Origin: Christensenella sp. UBA7571
GTDB taxonomy: Bacteria > Bacillota > Clostridia > Christensenellales > CAG-917
NCBI GenBank assembly: GCA_002476605.1
Contig: DLLD01000015.1
Span: 9,694 to 73,693, forward strand
Length of the DNA: 64,000 bases
Direction of reading: 5' to 3'
Shown: piece after piece, positions 10,203 to 59,352 of the stretch
Position numbering within the stretch: position 1 is the first letter of the stretch
How the letters are laid out: each line of letters begins with the position of its first letter
The notes under the pieces: model-generated
What the model was told of the DNA's origin: nothing
The model's database searches: none
The model's input: the letters and a program-made list of their open reading frames with translations, nothing else
Made by a program: the position numbers and the translations under genes

Positions 10203-10236
10203 TCTTATATCGTTTATTGTGGATTTTATGAAAATT

Positions 10237-10372
10237 TCGAGTGTGGGTGTCCCGCCCTCGAAACAGTGATATCGTGCTTGCGCACGGTGATATTTGCGCA
10301 TAGCGCAAGTGATATTTTTTGTTATCGCAAAAAGTGATATTGCGACTTTGTCGCAGTTGTGGAATATTCCAT
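10237..10372 (+). repeat. Family A hairpin array: GC hairpin, then 4 x (GTGATAT + short palindrome), then GTTGTGGAATATTCC
   Basis: GTGATAT occurs 4 times, separated by CGTGC-TTGC-GCACG, TTGCGC-ATA-GCGCAA, TTTTTG-TTATCG-CAAAAA and TGCGAC-TTT-GTCGCA. The same architecture recurs at 56775-57058. Confidence 0.8.
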
Positions 10373-10391
10373 AAACAATAATAAAGTGCGT

Positions 10392-10719
10392 CGTAACTCC
10401 TCTAAATAGAATTGCCCCCTCTTTCCGGACACGCCGGCATTTCTAAAAAAATAATTAAATGCAACTTTCCCCCTTCCTCACGGTGTTTCCCCTATTCCGT
10501 TCCCCCTCCGCACTTCGTTTGAGGGAACCCACGGAACCGCTCCGCGGGGGGACACACTCGGCACGCGCATAGAGAAGTAACGTTCTCTCGTTATGCCACT
10601 CGTTCGCCAACGAAAAGAACAACACTCGTTGGCTCACTTGTACTTATCATCAAGCTTGGCGCTCGATTCGGTCGGCGCCTTGCGCCTCCAACTCCGAATA
10701 AGCAGATTCCGTGTATAAG
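10392..10719 (+). repeat. Family C interspersed structured element, copy 1 (about 330 nt)
   Basis: It shares conserved blocks with 42676-42953 and 51436-51950. These are TAACTCCTCTAAATAGAATTGCCCCCTCTTTCCGGACACGCCGGCATTTC, CTCGTTATGCCACT, the hairpin GCCAACGA/TCGTTGGC, CTTGTAC and the hairpin GGCGC-CTT-GCGCC. Confidence 0.75.
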
Positions 10720-10836
10720 TAGTCTTCGATTGAGTGTTCGTTAATTGGCCCGCTCTACAAGTTCGCGGACGGCGGTTTCTATTTCGTTTTCAAATAGGCA
10801 CATTCCGTTAATAAGTACGCTCTCAATAGGTTTTCG

Positions 10837-10895
10837 TTCGGGTGTGGGTGTCCCACCCGCAATTATTAATTATTAACTATTAATTATTAATTCCT
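10837..10895 (+). repeat. H0 GC hairpin (TTCGGGTGTGGGTGTCCCACCC) fused to an AT-rich TTAATTATTAA tract
   Basis: A near-identical composite occurs at 59298-59352. H0 alone occurs at 47951-47972 and heads each family A copy. Confidence 0.75.
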
Positions 10896-37300: not shown

Positions 37301-37405
37301 CCAAATAGATGAAGAACAAGGAAGAGCCGTCCGTACGACAACCCAATTTACAAGTCGTAAATGAGTTGCGGGCGGACGGCTCTGACGCAGTTATTCGTTA
37401 TTTGG
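37301..37405 (-). repeat. Family B extended-hairpin module (variant with AGATGAAGAACAAGGAA arm), overlapping the stop codon of the M28 gene
   Basis: The outer stem is GAGCCGTCCG/CGGACGGCTC (37324-33/37373-82). The core is CAAC-CCAA-[TTTAC..GTAAA]-TGA-GTTG. P1 is CCAAATA/TATTTGG. On the minus strand the hairpin is followed by UUCCUUGUUCUUCAUCU. Confidence 0.7.
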
Positions 37406-42645: not shown

Positions 42646-42675
42646 GTGGTAAGAGAAAGCGCATATTTGCTACTT

Positions 42676-42953
42676 CGTAACTCCTCAAATGCAATGCCCC
42701 CTCTTTCCGGACACGCCGGCATTTCTCCCGCCACTCGTATAAGGGTATTTCTCTACAATATTATCCGTCGCTCGCGGGGGAGACAATCGGCACTCACATA
42801 AAAAAGTATCGTCCCCTTGTTATATCACTCGTTCGCCAACGAAAAGAACAACACTCGTTGGCTCACTTGTACTATCCGTCAAGTTCGGCGCTCCACCGCT
42901 CACCGCCTTGCGGTTCGAGTTCTGTCTCCGAAATTGCGCATAGCGTTTATAAG
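42676..42953 (+). repeat. Family C interspersed structured element, copy 2 (about 280 nt)
   Basis: It has the same conserved blocks as copies 1 and 3. Hairpins are GCCAACGA/TCGTTGGC (42835-42/42855-62) and ACCGC-CTT-GCGGT (42902-14). Confidence 0.75.
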
Positions 42954-43017
42954 CGCAGTATTGATTTTAGCCAGCAAAAGTGTTAAAATAAATTTTAGTA
43001 AAATATAGGGGTATGTT

Positions 43018-47094: not shown

Positions 47095-47514
47095 CTATTT
47101 ATGTGCTTTTGCATATTTCAATGCATTGTAAGCACCGCCAAAATCACTCGTCACATACAACAAAACGTAATCTGCGTTTTTTATCATCCACTCGTTTCTC
47201 TTGGATATAGCAAACTTTAACGGTACGTTCTCAATCTCGGGATAAACAATCTCGTCATATTCTTCGTTTAGATAATCTTCCCTATTCTTTAACCATTTAT
47301 TTATATAAGGCGTCACGAAAATCAATCTCGTATCGGGGTGCGTTTCTTTATATTTTTTTGCACATTTTTTTACAAATCCGTCAAAATTCCCGTATCCGCC
47401 AAAATAAAAATTCAATCGTTCACCGTTTGAAATTTTTGATAATAAACTTAAAACTTTTTCTTCGTCCCCAAGGTTAGACATAAAGGAAGAGTGCCCAAAA
47501 ACTGTAATATTCAT
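47095..47514 (-). CDS. SLOG-family (YpsA/DUF1273-like) protein
   Basis: The 139-aa protein shows the pattern ITVFGH...FYFGGYGNFD...IFVTPY...ADYVLLY..GGAY, which resembles the YpsA/DUF1273 Rossmann-like SLOG fold. The gene is clearly AT-richer than its flanks. Confidence 0.5.
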   Translation of the reverse strand: MNITVFGHSSFMSNLGDEEKVLSLLSKISNGERLNFYFGGYGNFDGFVKKCAKKYKETHPDTRLIFVTPYINKWLKNREDYLNEEYDEIVYPEIENVPLKFAISKRNEWMIKNADYVLLYVTSDFGGAYNALKYAKAHK

Positions 47515-47673: not shown

Positions 47674-47916
47674 GTGACTGTAAATGATGCCGTGGCAAAA
47701 AGAATAATTGCTCTGTTGTCCGAAAAGAAGATGACGCAGTATCGTTTGGAGCAACTTTCGGGCATACAACACGGACATATGCAATGGATATTGAGTGGGA
47801 AAAGCAAAACCGTGACTTTATCCACCGTAATGATGATTGCACACGGTTTTGGAATGACCGTATTAGAATTTTTGGACGACGACCTCTTCAAATACGAGAA
47901 TTTAGAAGTAGAATAA
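47674..47916 (+). CDS. XRE-family helix-turn-helix transcriptional regulator
   Basis: The 80-aa protein has a GTG start with a GAGGTG RBS. The HTH pattern is IIALLSEKKMTQYRLEQLSGIQHGHMQWILSGK. Confidence 0.75.
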   Translation: MTVNDAVAKRIIALLSEKKMTQYRLEQLSGIQHGHMQWILSGKSKTVTLSTVMMIAHGFGMTVLEFLDDDLFKYENLEVE

Positions 47917-47920
47917 CATA

Positions 47921-47952
47921 GAAACCGAGAACTGTGTTCTCGGTCTTTTTTT
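47921..47952 (+). terminator. rho-independent terminator of the XRE gene
   Basis: The sequence is ACCGAGAAC-TGT-GTTCTCGGT-CTTTTTTT. Confidence 0.8.
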
Positions 47953-47972
47953 CGGGTGTGGGTGTTCCACCC
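47951..47972 (+). repeat. H0 GC hairpin module
   Basis: The sequence TTCGGGTGTGGGTGTTCCACCC directly follows the terminator U-run. It is the same module seen at 10837, 56775, 56918 and 59298. Confidence 0.7.
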
Positions 47973-48007
47973 TCACCGTCATTCCCTCTATAAAAAATGC
48001 GATAAAC

Positions 48008-48353
48008 AGATGAAGAACAAGAAAGGACTGTTCGCACGGCAACCCTAATTCCACTTGTTAAAAACGCGATAAATCGATGCACAACGCGAAAGCACCCCGA
48101 GGAGCGCAAACCCAACGTACACGACGTACGTGATTTGCGAAACTCGGGGTGCTGTAAGGAACGCAGTGACGGAATAGCGATTGTTACGTTATGCGTCAAT
48201 CGCGTCCAAAGTTAGGCGCGATTTAGCGCGTTTGTAAAACTTCGATATTTAGATGAAGAGCAAGGAAAAGCCCCTCGAATGACAACCCTAATTTACTAAT
48301 CGTAAATGAGTTGGCAGTCGAGGGGCTTTGACAAAGCTATTCGCTAAATAGCG
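48008..48353 (-). repeat. Array of family B modules: one truncated, two complete, plus a small GCGC hairpin
   Basis: Complete modules have outer stems 48092-48101/48143-52 (GCACCCCGAG/CTCGGGGTGC; core GCAAA-CCCAA-[CGTAC..GTACG]-TGA-TTTGC) and 48267-78/48318-29 (AAAGCCCCTCGA/TCGAGGGGCTTT; core CAAC-CCTAA-[TTTAC..GTAAA]-TGA-GTTG). The truncated copy is at 48008-48060. Confidence 0.7.
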
Positions 48354-50217: not shown

Positions 50218-51453
50218 ATGCTTGAACTATTGATGCCGGCGGGCAATCTCAAAAAACTCAAAACTGCTTTTCACTTCGGTGCGGACGCCGTGTATATAGG
50301 CGGAAAGCAGTTTTCTTTGCGTGCCTTTGCGGACAACTTCTCCGAAGAAGAAATGATAGAAGGCATAAATTTTGCTCACGCGTTCGGCAAAAAAGTGTAC
50401 GTCACGGTCAATATATTTGCCAAAAATTCCGACCTCGAAAAAGCCAAAGAATACTTTGAGTTTTTGCAAAAAGTCGGCGCTGACGCGGTGCTTATAAGCG
50501 ATATAGGTCTCGTGACGCTTTGCAAAGAAGTTGCTCCCGACCTCACTATTCACCTCTCCACGCAAGCCAACACAACTAACCTTCTTGCCGTCAAATTTTG
50601 GCAAAGTATGGGCGTAAAACGCGTGGTGCTTGCGCGCGAACTCGGCTACGACGAGATACTTGCCGTTCACAACGCCGTACCCGATATGGAACTCGAAGCG
50701 TTCGTGCACGGCGCAATGTGTATGAGTTACAGCGGGCGTTGTCTTCTCTCCTCTTATTTTAGCAATCGCAGTGCCAACCGCGGGGCGTGCATACAACCTT
50801 GCCGTTGGGGATATCGCATAACGGAGACGGAACGCCACGAGGGAAAACCTCTCGATATAGAGCAAGACGAGAGAGGCACTTACTTTATGAACAGTCGCGA
50901 TTTGCGCCTTTTGAGGCATATTCCCGAAATTGCACAATCGGGCATCGTTTCACTCAAAGTGGAAGGCCGTATGAAGAGCGAATTTTACGTCGCTACGGTG
51001 GCGTGCGCCTATCGCAAGGCAATCGACGAGTATTTGTCCACGGGACGTATAGACGACGTGGACACGCTCGAAACGCGCCTCGAAACGGTTGCTCACCGCA
51101 CCTACACCGACGCGTATTTTGACGGAGACAACCTCAACACCGTATGTATGGACGAGGGACAATCCCAAGAAAAATATATCTTCACCGCAGTCGTGCTTGA
51201 CTACTCGGACGGCGTTGCCACGGTTGAAATGCGCAATCGCTTCAAAACGGGTGACGTCTTGCGTATACTCTCCCCCGACGAGAGCGTAGACGACGAGCTT
51301 TTTGCCGTCGGTGAGATAACCCACACTCAAACGAACGAAAAAACGGACGATGCCAAACTCGTGCAACATACCTATTCTTTTGGCTGCCCCTACGCCGTTC
51401 AAAAAGGTGATTTATTGCTTAAAGACATGGACAGTCATAACTCCTCTAAATAG
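50218..51453 (+). CDS. peptidase U32 family protein
   Basis: The N-terminal pattern ELLMPAGNLKKLKTAFHFGADAVYIGG and a conserved Cys-rich core (CMSYSGRCLLS) support the call. The last codons and the stop lie inside family C copy 3. Confidence 0.85.
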   Translation: MLELLMPAGNLKKLKTAFHFGADAVYIGGKQFSLRAFADNFSEEEMIEGINFAHAFGKKVYVTVNIFAKNSDLEKAKEYFEFLQKVGADAVLISDIGLVTLCKEVAPDLTIHLSTQANTTNLLAVKFWQSMGVKRVVLARELGYDEILAVHNAVPDMELEAFVHGAMCMSYSGRCLLSSYFSNRSANRGACIQPCRWGYRITETERHEGKPLDIEQDERGTYFMNSRDLRLLRHIPEIAQSGIVSLKVEGRMKSEFYVATVACAYRKAIDEYLSTGRIDDVDTLETRLETVAHRTYTDAYFDGDNLNTVCMDEGQSQEKYIFTAVVLDYSDGVATVEMRNRFKTGDVLRILSPDESVDDELFAVGEITHTQTNEKTDDAKLVQHTYSFGCPYAVQKGDLLLKDMDSHNSSK

Positions 51454-51950
51454 AATTACCCCCTCTTTCCGGACACGCCGGCATTTCCACTTCGGCGTTT
51501 GCGCACCGCAATCCGCCTCGTTCGCTTTGGCTACAACACATTCACCGAATGTGTTGCTTGACGCGTCGCGCCCGACCACTCTTATAATGGCATTTCTCTG
51601 CAATATTATCCGTCGCTCGTGGGGGAGACATTTGGCACGCGCATAGAAAGGGACATTTCTCTCGTTATGCCACTGCGCTTTGTGCGCCAGCTACGCAACA
51701 ACACGGCGCAGTCGCTTGTACTACACCCCACAAGGCTTCCACACACAAAAGACAAGCGAACGAAGGCGCGATATATAAGATGAAAGCGCAGTCTTTTGTG
51801 TGAAGGAAAGAAGGAGCACCAAGGCAAAAAGCAAACAATTGGCACAAGTGGCAATTGTGGCAAAAAGCCTTGTGTGTGACGCGAGCTTGGCGCAAAGACG
51901 CTCGCCGCCTTGCGGCTCGAAGATCTGAATAAGCACATTTCGCTTATAAG
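51436..51950 (+). repeat. Family C interspersed structured element, copy 3 (about 515 nt, with two insertions)
   Basis: It has the same left block, central block (ATTTCTCTGCAATATTATCCGTCGCTCGTGGGGGAGACA), CTTGTAC, and the hairpin GCCGC-CTT-GCGGC (51904-16). Extra nested helices are CACAAGGCTT/AAGCCTTGTG and CACACACAAAAGAC/GTCTTTTGTGTG. Confidence 0.75.
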
Positions 51951-52002
51951 AGTGTTTCTAATATATAATATAAATGCGTAATATAACTTATAATAAAACA
52001 AT

Positions 52003-53937: not shown

Positions 53938-56586
53938 TTATTCTACCTCCTTTTGCGTATTTTCTTCCGCAGGTAAGGCGGTATCCTCCGTGGCGGAGGT
54001 GTCTACGGCGTTTGCCGTATCTGCTTCTTGCACGGCGTTTTCGTCTTGCAAAACGTTTTTACCTTTCTTTTTATTGCGTTTTTTGCGCTCTTCGACGACG
54101 GCAGTGCCGTTGGCGTATTCACGCTCTTTTTCAGCGCATACGAAGCTGAGGAAGTAGAAGAACACCACGAGTCCCGTGAAGAACATAAGCATATCTCTAA
54201 GCGAGAAGAGCGGATACATTCTCGGCTTGTAGGAGAGGTCAACCATAACTTGTCTTACGGAATTGAGGTCGGCAAGACCGAGTGCGGAGGGATAAGTTCC
54301 CGCGCCGAGTGTGTCACCTACGAGGACCGAACCGATCATTTTGCCGTAAGTTTGCGCTTCGTATTGTGCTTTGTAGAATTTCTTCACCGCTGCGTCGACT
54401 TCGCCCATTTCGGGATCGATAAATTCCCAGAACGGCTTGATAAGCGGAGATTGATAGGAGTACAATCCTTGGAGCACGTTCACGAGGATTGCGGTTATGT
54501 CGATGACGGGTTGATAATAAGTGTTGCCGTTGGCTCTCTTTGCCTCTTTGAAGAGCGGAATTTCGATACCGCTGATGCTGAGACCTTTGACGGTTTCACC
54601 GTTGACGGTGAGATCTTTAAGCACGAGACCGCCGACGAGTTTGCCGATGGTGTTTTGCACGAGAATGTTGTAAAGATCGATGCCGAACGTATTGAGCACG
54701 CCGTCAAGAGCCGTGTTGAGGAATTGGGAGAGGTGATCGAGGTCGAACGCATAATCGTCTTCACCGAGAAGCGTATTGTCAAAGTCGATATCGAGCAACA
54801 CGTCACCGCCTTCCGTTGCTTTGGCGGGGTTCGTACCCATATTGCCGTCTTCGTCCGCTCTTACGAGTGCGACGTAGAGGTGATCTTTCTTTTGTCCGAA
54901 GATTTCACCCTTGTAAATAAGCACGAGGCTTGCGTTCTTCAATTCGTAGCTATCGTCAACGCCGACCAAGGACTTGATAAGTCCGCCGATCGTCGTACTG
55001 CCGACCGAGCCGTTCATATCCGCGCCCATATCTTTGAGACTCCAACCTTTTTCGAGTTTTTCGAGGATAGGAGCAATGATATTTGCGATAGTCGTTTGCT
55101 TGCCGTCAAAGTTGATTGAGATACTGTTGATAAGAGGTATCTTTTCTCCGAGTTTCTTGACGATTTCGCTTGCGCCGTAATCACCGCTTGCGTTCTTGTC
55201 GAGCAACAAGTCAAAGAGGTGGTTGTCACCGAGCAACGCACCCACTTGCGCCACGAGATAATCGAGTCTACCGTGCGTCAAAGAGAATCTGTCGGTAAAG
55301 TAGACTTCTTGCTCGTAGTACGCCGTCTCGCGTGCGCTTGCTTCCGTTGTATAGTAAGCGTCGCGTGCGTCGATTGCGTTTTGGATAACCATAGCAACTT
55401 CGTCTTTATAATCGTCGGACGTTACGAGTGCTTGCGATTCGTAGTAGTCTTCGAGGATTTCAAGGACGTTGTAGAGGCTGAACACCCAGCCGTCGGAGAA
55501 CAATCCGTTGGGATTGTAAATACCCGTGCCGTAGTCACCGTCCGTGGTGTTGACGACGCTCACCGTTCCGCCTGCCGCGCCTTCGGGGAGTTCTTTGCCG
55601 TCTGCGTCAACGTACACCGTGCCGACGGGCATCAAATCTTTGGAATACCACACGTAAACGTATTGACCGTTTTCTTTGTCGGCACTGACGGTTACCCATT
55701 CACCTTTCTTCTCGTCGTATTGGACGGTTTTGTAGCCTTTCTCTTTATACCAATAGTTGGAGTAAGTCACACCGTTGATGACGAGCTTACCGTCGATAGG
55801 TTTAAGCTCGACGACTTGATTTCTCTCAACGTCGGTGATAAGACCGTCACCCGCTTCGATATTATTGTTTTTATCTGCGTTTACTCTGGACGCACCCGTC
55901 TTCTCGTCAATCGTGAAGCTGATGTCCACGCCGACTTCGACCGTGCCGTCCACTTCGTCGGAGATGAGATAGCCGTACGTTACGGGTTTGTTGGAGATGT
56001 TGCCCGCAACACCGCCCTTGTCTTTGCCTTCCATCTCGACATTGTACGCCTTTTTGAGCAAGTCGATTTTTTCAATGAGTTTGGTAGTTTCGTTCTTGCT
56101 TGCCGCGTTTGAAGAGAGGGTGCGGTAGTAGGAAAGCTGCGTCTTATAGTCTGCAACCGTAACTCCGTCCCCGTAGGTCTTCTTTGCGTCGGCTGCAATT
56201 TGCTCGATTTGGGACTCGAACACCGCGTCCATAACAAAGCCGGATACGAGCATAACCACGAGACACGTCGCGACAACCGCAAACATTCTCACTCGACTGC
56301 TTTTCACCGTCTTGGCAAGGATAATATGCACGATGGAAATAATCGCCCAAAGAGCAAACGCGATCCAAACGCCGTAAAGAGCGGGCGCGGTGATATACGC
56401 TTCCATTTGCATAAAGAAACCAAGCGCGGACGTGCTCACCGTGTCACCCATAAACGGGTCGTGACCGAGGAACTTGACTGTCGTGAAACACACGGCAACC
56501 ATAAACAGCGGAAGACCAAGCATATAGAACACGATTTTCAGTGCACGATACAACTTGACCTTTTGGTACTGTTGATTTTGGCTCAT
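53938..56586 (-). CDS. large hypothetical membrane protein (882 aa)
   Basis: It has N-terminal TM helices, an extracytoplasmic domain of about 650 aa, a C-terminal TM helix and a Lys-rich then acidic tail. I recognise no family. Confidence 0.65.
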   Translation of the reverse strand: MSQNQQYQKVKLYRALKIVFYMLGLPLFMVAVCFTTVKFLGHDPFMGDTVSTSALGFFMQMEAYITAPALYGVWIAFALWAIISIVHIILAKTVKSSRVRMFAVVATCLVVMLVSGFVMDAVFESQIEQIAADAKKTYGDGVTVADYKTQLSYYRTLSSNAASKNETTKLIEKIDLLKKAYNVEMEGKDKGGVAGNISNKPVTYGYLISDEVDGTVEVGVDISFTIDEKTGASRVNADKNNNIEAGDGLITDVERNQVVELKPIDGKLVINGVTYSNYWYKEKGYKTVQYDEKKGEWVTVSADKENGQYVYVWYSKDLMPVGTVYVDADGKELPEGAAGGTVSVVNTTDGDYGTGIYNPNGLFSDGWVFSLYNVLEILEDYYESQALVTSDDYKDEVAMVIQNAIDARDAYYTTEASARETAYYEQEVYFTDRFSLTHGRLDYLVAQVGALLGDNHLFDLLLDKNASGDYGASEIVKKLGEKIPLINSISINFDGKQTTIANIIAPILEKLEKGWSLKDMGADMNGSVGSTTIGGLIKSLVGVDDSYELKNASLVLIYKGEIFGQKKDHLYVALVRADEDGNMGTNPAKATEGGDVLLDIDFDNTLLGEDDYAFDLDHLSQFLNTALDGVLNTFGIDLYNILVQNTIGKLVGGLVLKDLTVNGETVKGLSISGIEIPLFKEAKRANGNTYYQPVIDITAILVNVLQGLYSYQSPLIKPFWEFIDPEMGEVDAAVKKFYKAQYEAQTYGKMIGSVLVGDTLGAGTYPSALGLADLNSVRQVMVDLSYKPRMYPLFSLRDMLMFFTGLVVFFYFLSFVCAEKEREYANGTAVVEERKKRNKKKGKNVLQDENAVQEADTANAVDTSATEDTALPAEENTQKEVE

Positions 56587-56774
56587 AATGTTCTCCTTAA
56601 CTTCTCGTACTCACGCCTACGTACGTAAGCGTGCGCACAATATATATAATATTACTTTTCTATCATATCATAACAAAAATCATATTTCAATACGATTTTG
56701 ACAATTTTTTCTCGGCACAACAAATTGTGGTCGCGCACAACGCCGTGCGAATATGTGGCTTTTTATATATTTTA

Positions 56775-56916
56775 TTCGGGTGTGGGTGTCCCACCCCCGC
56801 CCTCAAAAATAGTGATATTGTGCTTGCGCACAGTTATATTTGCGCTTTGCGCAAGTGATATTTTTGGCTTGCGCCAAAAGTGATATTCGCACTCTGTGCG
56901 AGTTGTGGAATATTCT
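56775..56916 (+). repeat. Family A hairpin array, copy 2
   Basis: H0 (GGGTGTGGGTGTCCCACCC) is followed by GTGATAT/GTTATAT heptamers at 56812, 56833, 56855 and 56880. These are separated by TGTGC-TTGC-GCACA, TTGCGC-TTT-GCGCAA, TTTTGGC-TTGC-GCCAAAA and TCGCAC-TCT-GTGCGA. The copy ends in GTTGTGGAATATTC. Confidence 0.8.
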
Positions 56917-56917
56917 A

Positions 56918-57058
56918 TTCGGGTGCGGGTGTCCCGCCCCTTTCTCAAAAATAGTGATATTGTGCTTGCGCACAGTTATATTTGCGCTTTGCGAGAGTGA
57001 TATTGTTGCTATCGCAACAGTGATATTCGCACTTTGTGCGAGTTATGGAATATTCCAT
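56918..57058 (+). repeat. Family A hairpin array, copy 3 (tandem with copy 2, 143-bp period)
   Basis: The architecture is the same, with H0 changed to GCGGG/CCCGC and the third hairpin to TGTTGC-TATC-GCAACA. The second hairpin is degenerate. Confidence 0.8.
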
Positions 57059-57583
57059 ATTTCGCTACGCTAGATTCCCACGCTAACGCTCGGAATGACA
57101 AACGGAATAATCCATCAGCGCACAAAGTGCGCCTAACGTTGCTCGTAGACAGGCGGAGCCGTAGAATATAACTCCACGAAGAGTTGTTGTGAGCATCAAC
57201 TATCCGTCCGAGCAACCGCCGAGCCGTCTCAAGGTTGTGAGACCTTACGCACAAAAGCAATGCTCCTTTCACCAAGCAAGCGATATAGCGAAACTGTGGA
57301 TTGAGTTTTTATCCGTGCCCAAACTGATAGCGTGTATCGGTTGCGCGGTAGTAGTTGCGAGAACAAATGCGGTTTATGACAACAAATGTATTTGTTGTCA
57401 TCACCGCGATGCCGTTTGAGCAACGTGCGCCTAAATATGTGTCAAGTTATCTTGAAAAGATAAGTGACACGTGTTTAGCATTCGGCGCAAAAAAAATTAA
57501 TACAATCATTAATTTTTGTGTGCATATAATTCGTTTTCGCATTTTAATCTTAAAACTCGCACAAATTGATTTCATTTTTGATA

Positions 57584-57612
57584 TTGATTTTGCACCGATT
57601 GCAGTATATTAT
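57584..57612 (+). promoter_or_regulatory. sigma-A-type promoter of gdhA
   Basis: TTGATT (57584-89), a 17-nt spacer, then TATTAT (57607-12). An AGGAGGA RBS precedes the ATG at 57651. Confidence 0.5.
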
Positions 57613-57650
57613 AAAATTACATAGGCGAAAGCCACTTTTAGGAGGAAAAT

Positions 57651-58997
57651 ATGTCATATATCAGTGAAGTCATTGAACAGACCGAATTGAAAAACCCGGG
57701 ACAACCCCAATTTATGCAAACGGTGAAAGAGGTTCTTACGTCTCTCGCTCCCGCCGTCGAGCAACACGAAGAAACGATGAGAAAGAACGTTATCCTCGAA
57801 CGCCTCGTAGAACCCGATAGACAAATTATGTTCCGCGTGCCTTGGATGGACGACAACGGTGTATATCACGTCAATCGTGGTTTCCGCGTGCAATTCAACA
57901 ACGCAATCGGACCGTACAAGGGCGGTTTGCGCTTCCAAAAAGACGTCAACCTCGACGCAATGAAGTTCCTCGGTTTTGAACAAACCTTCAAAAACTCCCT
58001 CACTTCCCTTCCTATGGGCGGTGCAAAGGGCGGCGCGGACTTCGATCCCACCGGCAAGAGCGACGCTGAAATTATGCGTTTCTGCCAATCCTTTATGAAC
58101 GAACTTTATCGCCACATCGGACCGAGTATGGACGTCCCCGCGGGTGATATGGGCGTCGGCGGAAGAGAAATCGGTTATCTCTTCGGACAATACAAAAAAA
58201 TCGTCGGTTCTTACGAAAACGGCGTTCTCACCGGCAAAGGTTTGAGTTACGGCGGATCTCTCATCCGTCCCGAAGCAACCGGTTACGGCGCAACTTACTT
58301 CCTCGACGAAGTGCTCAAACACGAAGGCGAACAAATCAAAGGCAAGACCTTCTGCCTCAGCGGTTTCGGCAACGTCGCTTGGGGCGCAGCCGCAAAAATC
58401 ACCGAACTCGGCGGTAAGGTCGTCACCCTCTCCGGTCCCGACGGATATATCTACGATCCGGACGGCGTAAGCGGTGAAAAAATCGATTATATGCTCGAAA
58501 TGCGTGCATCTAACCGCAACAAAGTCAAAGATTACGCAGACAAATACGGTTGCGAATTCGTCGCGGGCAAGAAGCCTTGGGGCAACGTCAAAGCAGACGT
58601 TTATATGCCTTGCGCAAGACAAAACGAAGTGCTTCTCGAAGACGCGGAAGCCATGGTCAAACTCGGAGTCCCCGTACTCAACGAAGTTTCCAATATGCCC
58701 ACCACCAACGAGGCAATCGCATACTTGCAATCTCACGGAGTTCTCGTCACTCCGTCCAAAGCAGTCAACGCGGGCGGCGTAGCGACCAGCGGTCTCGAAA
58801 TGTCTCAAAACAGCGAACGTCTCTCTTGGACGGCAGAAGAAGTCGATGCAAAACTCAAACAAATTATGAAAGGCATCCACAACCAAATCTGCGACGCGCT
58901 CAACGCATACGGTCTCGACTACAACCTCGTCAAGGGTGCAAACCTTGCCGGTTTCAAGAAGGTATACGAAGCAATGTTGGCACAAGGCATAAACTGA
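57651..58997 (+). CDS. gdhA: NADP-specific glutamate dehydrogenase
   Basis: It has the Glu/Leu/Phe/Val dehydrogenase active-site region PMGGAKGGADFDP and a GFGNVAWG dinucleotide fold. It is 448 aa long. Confidence 0.93.
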   Translation: MSYISEVIEQTELKNPGQPQFMQTVKEVLTSLAPAVEQHEETMRKNVILERLVEPDRQIMFRVPWMDDNGVYHVNRGFRVQFNNAIGPYKGGLRFQKDVNLDAMKFLGFEQTFKNSLTSLPMGGAKGGADFDPTGKSDAEIMRFCQSFMNELYRHIGPSMDVPAGDMGVGGREIGYLFGQYKKIVGSYENGVLTGKGLSYGGSLIRPEATGYGATYFLDEVLKHEGEQIKGKTFCLSGFGNVAWGAAAKITELGGKVVTLSGPDGYIYDPDGVSGEKIDYMLEMRASNRNKVKDYADKYGCEFVAGKKPWGNVKADVYMPCARQNEVLLEDAEAMVKLGVPVLNEVSNMPTTNEAIAYLQSHGVLVTPSKAVNAGGVATSGLEMSQNSERLSWTAEEVDAKLKQIMKGIHNQICDALNAYGLDYNLVKGANLAGFKKVYEAMLAQGIN

Positions 58998-59050: not shown

Positions 59051-59189
59051 CGCTAGATTTTCAGTTTTCTAATCGCGCAACCGCTGTGTTGCTCGCAGTC
59101 CATACACGGACAAAAACTCCCGCCACAATTCCGCCACATCGCTTGCTTGATACTCGCTTCGCTCGTTGTTTTATGCGGATAGTAATTTT

Positions 59190-59240
59190 GGGTTTGCACC
59201 TCACGGGGTGCTTTCTTGTTCTTCATCTATTTTACAGCCT
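59190..59240 (+). repeat. Partial family B module (3' half only), plus-strand orientation
   Basis: The sequence TTTTGGGTTTGCACCTCACGGGGTGCTTTCTTGTTCTTCATCTATTT aligns with the reverse complement of the 48.1-kb module (GTTGGGTTTGCGCTCCTCGGGGTGCTTTCGCGTTGTGCATC). The 5' half is missing. Confidence 0.55.
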
Positions 59241-59292: not shown

Positions 59293-59297
59293 ATAAT

Positions 59298-59352
59298 CGG
59301 GTTTGGGTGTCCCACCCACAATTATTAATTAATAATTGCTAATTATTAATTT
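59298..59352 (+). repeat. H0 hairpin variant plus AT-rich palindromic tract
   Basis: CGGGTTTGGGTGTCCCACCC is followed by the perfect palindrome AATTATTAATTAATAATT and then GCTAATTATTAATT. It is the counterpart of 10837-10895. Confidence 0.7.

Follow-up and report, generated by a model that had tools for sequence, protein, structure and literature searches.

Family C: modular, hairpin-rich intergenic elements with compensatory stem changes in gut Clostridia

Copies in the window and anatomy of the element

The window, a stretch of 64,000 nucleotides from Christensenella sp. UBA7571 (GenBank assembly GCA_002476605.1, contig DLLD01000015.1, positions 9,694 to 73,693 of the forward strand), carries between its genes an interspersed non-coding element that we refer to as Family C. 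The genes next to its copies encode an energy-coupling factor (ECF)-type ABC ATPase, pyruvate:ferredoxin oxidoreductase (PFOR), LeuS, a glycoside hydrolase family 5 (GH5) cellulase and a U32 peptidase. An earlier sequence-only reading of this DNA had reported three copies in plus orientation together with a list of shared blocks. Indeed, exactly three copies were found, each on the plus strand, and the listed blocks were seen in the alignment of the three. The 29-mer CCCCCTCTTTCCGGACACGCCGGCATTTC was identical in all of them (shuffles expect 0), and the blocks TCRTAACTCC, GGCAC.C.CATA, TTATRYCACT and CRCTTGTAC each occurred three times in the window, on the plus strand only. Sensitive BLAST with the copies detected no further Family C fragments in the window and recovered a separate hairpin resembling repetitive extragenic palindromes (REP-like) only. 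The end formerly given for copy 1 (10719) turned out to be too early: a tail of ATAAG units and a hairpin module extend it to about 10835.

Each copy was shown to combine four parts: a head that is conserved, a 5′ module drawn from several alternatives, a conserved 3′ domain with three hairpins and a loose ATAAG tail (Table 1). Across the family, the non-coding, hairpin-rich element measures 280–600 nt, with extra hairpin modules located at fixed internal points, that is, before the B box, within the A module and in a hairpin loop. At the left end, a semi-conserved AATAGAGTGCG is followed by the near-invariant GTCGTAACTCCTYTAAATRSAAT, and the information content climbs steeply at GTCGTAAC. The small head hairpin CCGG-ACACG-CCGG becomes CC-UUCG-GG or CCC-UUUC-GGG in other lineages. 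The 5′ module of type B is a box CCACTCGTATAGGGACATTTCTCTAC...CGCTCGCGGGGGAGACA, while type A comprises an A/T run, a second head-like box (TAAATGCAAC-CCCCCTTCCTC) and then the nested helices P_a, P_c and P_b. A C-module is optional; it is located before the B box or within the A domain, and A-type copies elsewhere carry it as well. Common to all types is the core GGCAC.C.CATAGA...TTATGCCACT, followed by the hairpins H_A, whose loop ..RCAACAACAC is conserved, H_E and H_B. Where the H_E loop is expanded, the expansion amounts to 150–160 nt. The tail consists of one to several (G/T)AATAAG-N8-10 units. The left end looks like one additional tail-type unit, and the two ends have a loose direct motif in common. 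The tail does not qualify as a true tandem repeat: Tandem Repeats Finder (TRF) detects the AATTATT run only, and the units are too irregular. The hairpin module that interrupts the tail of copy 1 (GCCCGCTCTACAAGTTCGCGGAC, also AGTCCGCTCTACAAGTTCGCGGAC(GGCGGTTTCTAT), 10747–10775) recurs amid tail units at loci L003, L018, L030, L049 and L070.

Table 1 Coordinates of Family C copies, their parts and adjoining repeats in the window
Feature	Position	Strand	Description
Copy 1, composite A-type	10380..10835	+	head, A-run with second head-like box, structured 5′ domain, conserved 3′ domain, long tail
Copy 2, simple B-type	42664..42956	+	head, B box CCACTCGTATAAGGGTATTTCTCTAC...CGCTCGCGGGGGAGACA, 3′ domain, single tail unit
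Copy 3, C-type	51434..51955	+	head, C-module, B box, 3′ domain with loop expansion, tail
Head of copy 1	10380..10446	+	AATAAAGTGCG semi-conserved, GTCGTAACTCCTCTAAATAGAAT near-invariant, CCCCCTCTTTCC, CCGG ACACG CCGG hairpin (10425-10437), CATTTC
5′ domain helices, copy 1	10495..10547	+	P_a, P_c, P_b
P_a, copy 1	10495-10499 / 10532-10536	+	TTCCG / CGGAA
P_c, copy 1	10500-10504 / 10523-10527	+	TTCCC / GGGAA
P_b, copy 1	10537-10540 / 10544-10547	+	CCGC / GCGG
C-module, copy 3	51488..51575	+	~88 nt; ACTTCGGCG...inner hairpin CAACACATTC/GAATGTGTTG...GCGTCGCGCCC
Conserved block	10560..10600; 42789-42829; 51634-51674	+	GGCACGCGCATAGA...CTCGTTATGCCACT; kept across divergent metagenome lineages
H_A, copy 1	10606..10633	+	GCCAACGA / TCGTTGGC, conserved loop AAAGAACAACAC
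H_A, copy 2	42835-42862	+	
H_A, copy 3	51683-51688 / 51705-51710	+	TGCGCC / GGCGCA
H_E	10637..10654; copy 2 42866-42883	+	CTTG.AC / (G/A)TCAAG
H_E loop expansion, copy 3	51722..51882	+	long hairpin CACAAGGCTT/AAGCCTTGTG, CACACAAAAGAC/GTCTTTTGTGTG
H_B, copy 1	10674..10686	+	CTT-loop hairpin (GNCGC/GCGNC); GGCGC-CTT-GCGCC
H_B, copy 2	42902-42914	+	ACCGC/GCGGT
H_B, copy 3	51904-51916	+	GCCGC/GCGGC
Tail of copy 1	10690..10835	+	loose 16-17-nt units (G/T)AATAAG-N8-10, broken by hairpin module GCCCGCTCTACAAGTTCGCGGAC
REP-like hairpin and (AATTATT)4.6 run	10837..10892	+	GGGTGTGGGTGTCCCACCC; behind copy 1 tail; terminator-like on +
Second structured repeat family	37303-37361, 48004-48062, 48071-48150, 48247-48345; inverted 59188-59232		

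Covarying helices

Covariation of H_A and H_B was counted over 22 distinct copies, with shuffled (n = 500) and slid controls. The sequence-only reading had proposed three covarying helices, two of which were well in agreement with this count. The hairpin with the loop ..AACAACAC, our H_A, showed changes on both sides in 5/8 pairs, a score matched by 0/500 shuffles; the CTT-loop hairpin H_B showed such changes in 2/5 pairs with 100% of cells paired (again 0/500 shuffles). The helix count over the 22 copies found 97% of cells paired, compared with only 22–43% in the slid controls. Metagenome copies displayed further H_A stems (TGCGCC/GGCGCA, TGTGCC/GGCACA, TGTGAC/GTCACA, TGTGAT/ATCACA). Within the A-type 5′ domain, which copy 1 carries, both-side changes were detected in 4/6 pairs of P_a (TTCCG/CGGAA, TCGCCG/CGGCGA, TCACCG/CGGTGA, TCGCTG/CAGCGA) and in 1/4 pairs of P_b (CCGC/GCGG vs CTGC/GCAG), in each case with 0/500 shuffles and with slid controls that collapsed. 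Compensatory changes were thus shown to preserve pairing in at least four helices. Stem sequences vary freely in a compensated manner, and loops and junction sequences are almost invariant.

The third proposed helix, GGCAT/ATGCC vs GGTAT/ATATC, did not hold, as its two sides vary independently across B-type copies when the alignment is inspected by eye. An unbiased scan for covarying columns in this region revealed sub-family linkage only (e.g., column 143 with 231), not pairing. What stands of the earlier account is therefore a real family of interspersed, non-coding elements that carry conserved blocks and covarying hairpins, less one of its three helices. Two other candidate pairings were discarded: in a long-range C-run/G-run interaction the sides are nearly invariant or vary independently, and a local covarying hairpin precedes the G-run instead; a head hairpin TAGAG/CTCTA lacked consistent covariation.

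The mismatches inside the trusted helices bear on the question of strand. A G.T mismatch is tolerable if the plus strand is RNA, an A.C mismatch if the minus strand is RNA. A hand tally from the alignments gave about eight G.T vs about nine A.C, so the transcribed strand could not be chosen by wobble pairs. Neither strand is favoured by this balance, and RNA-level selection on one strand is not demonstrated; the even split fits a structure with a role on both strands or at the DNA level. Single-sequence folding was unremarkable (z = –2.3 for plus, –1.3 for minus).

Family size and genomic behaviour

The head 22-mer occurred 71 times in five GTDB species-representative metagenome-assembled genomes (MAGs), giving 74 copies with the window included. 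The MAGs were those of uncultured Clostridiales UMGS1366, an uncultured Clostridia from a Hadza sample, a bin labelled Butyrivibrio crossotus, Christensenella sp. UBA767 and a Bacillota. Well-covered MAGs contained 19–24 matches each, which are minimum copy numbers per genome, and 31/74 head-bearing copies were situated at contig ends. The 3′-domain motif CAACAACAC-N7-8-TCRCTTGTACW was present in more than 110 metagenome contigs, almost all from human gut, with a few matches (e.g., L083 and L087) being due to chance. In these metagenome copies the 22-mer head is just one of several alternative 5′ parts. Full-length paralogues had a best identity of 92–94% and a median of 84%, and the family therefore appears old and maintained, with no sign of a recent burst.

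All copies are intergenic. The orientation of flanking genes is random (12/12/8/7 over the four configurations, 12 being convergent), and several copies begin right behind the terminator of the upstream gene. Recurrent neighbours proved to be orthologous housekeeping genes (pgk, tpi, pfk and glycogen phosphorylase; sequences judged by eye). In the window, the U32 peptidase gene (50218–51453) takes its final few codons, stop codon included, from the head of copy 3 (51434–51456). The Pfam U32_C domain is intact as far as residue 400 of 411, so the insertion adjoins the gene and does not shorten it.

UMGS1366 shares synteny with the window (~93% identity) and shows the same arrangement of head and U32 peptidase. 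Comparison of copy 3 with this orthologue (L008) revealed that the C-module and the loop expansion are present in the window copy only and that the H_A stem (GCGTGGC/GCCACGC in UMGS1366) was replaced with full compensation, the flanks inside the element being almost identical. More generally, orthologous sites in different species keep a copy, but with modules exchanged. Whole-module differences between orthologous copies were also observed for L011/L064, and an A-type copy was paired with a B-type copy at what is apparently one site in L044/L057 (a syntenic block with matching left flanks) and in L022/L048. Presence/absence was observed as well, with copies occasionally gained or lost: L043 and L065 each lack the other's copy, and the junctions are untidy and correspond to replacement. 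Furthermore, copies are nested, with new heads inside an older A module at an identical junction (..CCCCTATT | ..ACACT..AATAGAGTGCG) in two non-orthologous places. A look-up of LeuS for strain-level polymorphism showed a single contig, which ends at the repeat. Near other Family C copies, a 1.66-kb segment (L004 2481–4142) is missing at the orthologous L041 4342–4346.

Comparison with known classes

Rfam covariance models gave 0 matches at gathering threshold over the whole window, nothing relevant at E ≤ 10 for copies 1 and 3, and tRNAs and Gut-1 only in 11 related loci. The element had previously been left outside any known RNA family, a view that the Rfam check, which included OLE, ROOL, GOLLD, raiA and HEARO, upheld. 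IS605-orfB, a group II intron (considered for the left-end GTGCG), T-box and HEARO/omega RNA were likewise rejected, being without Rfam signal even at E ≤ 10. These large RNAs are not unlike Family C in outline: ROOL, GOLLD, OLE, raiA and HEARO/omega RNA fall in the same size range, also have many helices and likewise surround a conserved core with a variable periphery, and HEARO can be multi-copy. However, Family C lacks an associated IscB open reading frame (ORF), its copy number is far above that of ROOL, GOLLD, OLE and raiA, it has no covariance-model match to these or to HEARO, and its nesting, module swapping and missing strand asymmetry are atypical of large ornate RNAs.

The earlier statement that ORFs are not conserved through the element was borne out, as frames and starts differ between copies; for the same reason, a small conserved ORF or type I toxin was rejected. 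Its failure to place the element in a known insertion sequence (IS) or miniature inverted-repeat transposable element (MITE) family also agreed with our results. In none of the three copies are the two ends connected by an inverted repeat, so that terminal inverted repeats (TIRs) are absent; at L043/L065 the junctions of filled vs empty sites were free of a target-site duplication (TSD), albeit at two sites only. A transposase-like recurrent neighbour was not found among 626 ORFs near ~200 copies (~1.6 Mb of fragmented assemblies). A classical MITE was therefore dismissed, given no TIR, no TSD, no autonomous partner and no ORF within any copy. Phage or plasmid origin found no BLAST match, and a lone viral 19-mer match at L071 was attributed to chance at high GC.

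Regulatory assignments fared no better. A cis-regulatory leader would be expected at a constant position and orientation, neither of which was observed: all four gene configurations occur, and the 3′ end of a gene lies within copy 3. The minus strand, which ends in GAGGAGTTAYG and in copy 2 lies upstream of leuS, was considered as a 5′ leader and rejected, given the random gene orientation and the convergent gene that copy 3 faces. Neither a promoter nor a terminator was found to frame the element consistently; matches to a sigma-70 promoter of its own in the head or the A-run were weak and non-conserved.

In its dimensions (280–600 nt, non-coding, at least 19–24 dispersed copies per MAG) Family C corresponds to an interspersed repeat in general, and in its alternative or optional modules, intergenic position, stable hairpins and lack of a transposase of its own to the ERIC and BOX elements. 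ERIC elements, also known as IRU, are intergenic, non-coding and hairpin-forming, reach tens to hundreds of copies and have no associated transposase. They are unusually conserved, occupy orthologous sites common to species, are enlarged in some copies at fixed internal sites and are thought to act inside neighbouring transcripts. ERIC is a single imperfect palindrome of ~127 bp in Enterobacteria, whereas Family C spans 280–600 nt in gut Clostridia, carries a repeat tail and alternative 5′ modules in addition to at least 5–6 separate helices, and is unrelated in sequence. BOX of Streptococcus pneumoniae (boxA-boxB(n)-boxC) and bcr of the Bacillus cereus group are mosaics of a few boxes, with variable numbers of internal units and high copy number; like Family C they are intergenic, lineage-restricted and predicted to adopt stable secondary structure. 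In contrast, BOX has TIR-like complementary terminal boxes and bcr1 a TSD, neither of which was seen in Family C, and Family C is set apart by its extensive compensatory stem variation.

A further relative in design is the Gut-1 RNA motif (RF01706), a ~77-nt arrangement of three hairpins separated by GUGAAAU that was described from human-gut sequence only (Weinberg et al. 2010, PMC2864571). It occurs in the same organisms and intergenic regions as Family C and shares the principle of conserved single-stranded words between variable-stem hairpins; Family C itself has no Gut-1 match. In the window, arrays of 4–5 short variable-stem hairpins separated by GTGATAT(T) and ending in TGGAATATTCCA were located at 10262–10372, 56800–56918 and 56940–57058. 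Arrays of this design at L086 177–254 and L102 5095–5172 exceed the Rfam threshold for Gut-1. The window arrays were below threshold in the whole-window scan and were not scored against Gut-1 directly. On this design, the orphan Gut-1 motif would belong to these Clostridia and adjoin Family C, with variable relative orientation of the two.

Interpretation

We favour, with moderate confidence, the assignment of Family C to lineage-specific, modular, hairpin-rich non-coding intergenic repeats of the ERIC/IRU, BOX and bcr kind. This reading follows from the modular build, nesting and module exchange, the intergenic position, the absence of TIR, TSD and transposase, the random orientation and the symmetric mismatches. 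Family C would then spread and reshuffle at the DNA level, probably by recombination or gene conversion between copies together with trans-acting mobilisation, and its movement would not depend on a transposase of its own. The hairpins may be kept because the folded form matters, either in single-stranded DNA or in read-through transcripts of neighbouring genes in either direction. By analogy with ERIC and BOX, an effect on stability, termination or translation of adjacent mRNAs is conceivable. We claim neither a dedicated promoter nor a single sense strand for Family C.

Several observations weigh against this assignment. Neither a mobilising enzyme nor a target site or duplication came to light, so the term mobile is based entirely on presence/absence and nesting. 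Loops and junctions are conserved more than stems, and the retention of copies at orthologous sites with flanks ~83–93% identical is more suggestive of purifying selection acting on a functional molecule than of a passive repeat. The orientation is not entirely without bias: the plus strand of the element lies on the strand with negative GC skew in 82/130 loci, as it does in the window, and runs opposite to most coding sequence in 80/130. These 130 loci are not independent, because many are orthologues from different samples. Finally, MAG assemblies break at these repeats, and near-identical young copies may have been missed.

Each copy could alternatively be a gene for a large (~300–600 nt) modular structured non-coding RNA, a new multi-copy class of gut Christensenellales-like Clostridia, a reading that we consider possible and rather doubtful. 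The compensatory changes in at least five helices, the variable stems beside near-invariant loops and junctions, and the retention at orthologous loci are all in line with such a gene, as are insertions at hairpin tips that lengthen helices in the manner of expansion segments and the C(UUCG)G-like loops that in some variants take the place of the small head hairpin on the plus strand. Many copies start right after an upstream terminator and finish with a hairpin and an A/U-rich run on the plus strand, and copies adjoin arrays of the Gut-1 design, an accepted candidate RNA. Candidate functional surfaces are the C-rich, anti-Shine-Dalgarno-like AACUCCUC, CCCCCUCUUUCC and CUUUCCCCCUUCCUC on the plus strand and the loop ..CAACAACAC, all conserved single-stranded boxes, whereas the peripheral helices would have freedom to vary or expand. 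As a tentative extension, the RNA may be linked physically with the Gut-1-type arrays, its invariant C-rich and CAACAACAC boxes titrating, for example, ribosome-binding sites or an RNA-binding protein. However, a conserved sigma-70-type promoter was missing: a TAnnnT-like head box reads TGCAAT in about half of the copies and has no –35 element. G.U vs A.C mismatches were without asymmetry, nesting, module swapping and paralogues by the dozen in each genome are unusual in RNA genes, and the weak orientation bias makes the opposite (minus) strand co-directional with genes. The structured RNA implied by the sequence-only reading is thus not demonstrated, in view of the balanced mismatches, the lack of a consistent promoter or terminator and the random orientation.

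It is improbable that Family C is a non-autonomous IS200/IS605-type palindrome-associated transposable element (PATE), possibly a TnpB/IscB guide-RNA scaffold, or another TIR-less and TSD-less element such as IS110, mobilised in trans. Such an origin would account for the absence of both TIR and TSD, the hairpins near the left end, whose structure could matter as single-stranded DNA, and the nesting junction shared by two non-orthologous places; the minus strand of the element ends in GAGGAGTTAYG, which resembles a 5′ untranslated region entering a lost ORF, and a modest replication-strand bias exists. The bias, however, is 82:48 by GC skew among non-independent loci, and a ratio of 63:37 is far below the IS200/IS605 norm, for which a strong strand bias would be expected. 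Directly to the left of AATAGAGTGCG the information content was at background, and a conserved 4–5-nt target motif was not found there. ORFs resembling TnpA, TnpB, IscB or IS110 were not prominent near ~200 copies (top clusters judged by eye), eight flanking ORFs in the window are housekeeping genes by Pfam, HEARO and other Rfam models did not match at E ≤ 10, and a variable number of tail units is at odds with a defined right end.

Least convincing and very improbable is a protein-binding platform at the DNA level, in which the ATAAG units and boxes would be putative sites of an iteron-like, nucleoid or regulatory protein near highly expressed genes and the hairpins would be incidental, kept by templated quasi-palindrome repair: it fits the loose 16–17-nt direct repeats at the left end and in the tail, the strand-symmetric mismatches and the frequent central-metabolism neighbours (PFOR, glutamate dehydrogenase, pgk, tpi, pfk, glycogen phosphorylase), but the unit is too degenerate for TRF, its 16–17-nt spacing is not helical-phase, variable stems with invariant loops are hard to explain without a folded form, and no candidate binding protein was identified.

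Neighbouring repeats

Other repeats accompany Family C. The GC-rich REP-like hairpin TTCGGGTGTGGGTGTCCCACCC occurs in six direct copies (10236–10260, 10837–10861, 47951–47975, 56775–56799, 56918–56942 and 59296–59320) at junctions between other repeat modules, and an (AATTATT)n run then follows at 10861–10892 and 59321–59351. The combination of GGGTGTGGGTGTCCCACCC and the AATTATT run trails the tail in about one quarter of complete Family C copies. A second structured repeat family has the layout AAATAGATGAAGAACAAGGAA-[long variable stem]-CAACCCTAA-[inner hairpin]-TGAGTTG-..-GACA..GCTATTCGC; it is also found to the right of many Family C copies (L006, L022, L036, L051, L060 and L061).

The glutamate dehydrogenase gene (57651–58997) is bracketed by a 45-nt inverted repeat (57273–57317 and 59105–59149; 82% complementary), the CAAGCAAGCGATATAGCGAAACTGTGG motif of which is found again close to Family C copies in L043 and L053. 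Upstream of this gene lies ~1 kb of non-coding DNA (56586–57650) that contains two of the REP-like hairpins, two Gut-1-like arrays and ~600 nt of other sequence. Amid the repeat-rich regions, an AT-rich island holds a divergent pair of small genes at 47095–47514 (minus strand, 139 aa) and 47674–47916 (plus strand, an 80-aa ORF that is helix-turn-helix-like by eye).

Conclusions

The sequences of the element were not found in open-access literature text or supplements, and Family C appears to be an undescribed, unusually large and helix-rich member of the ERIC/BOX class. If it is a repeat only, it would be an unusually complex representative of that class, with half a dozen helices kept via compensatory change. 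It would also be of use as a marker of a little-known group of gut Clostridia and, through the 31/74 copies at contig ends, would explain the fragmentation of their MAGs. If the RNA reading were true, Family C would constitute a new class of large non-coding RNA, present in dozens of paralogous copies per genome in bacteria common in the human gut, and the orphan Gut-1 motif would gain a genomic context and a partner. In both cases, hundreds of natural variants are available within the family to test the maintenance of structured repeats.

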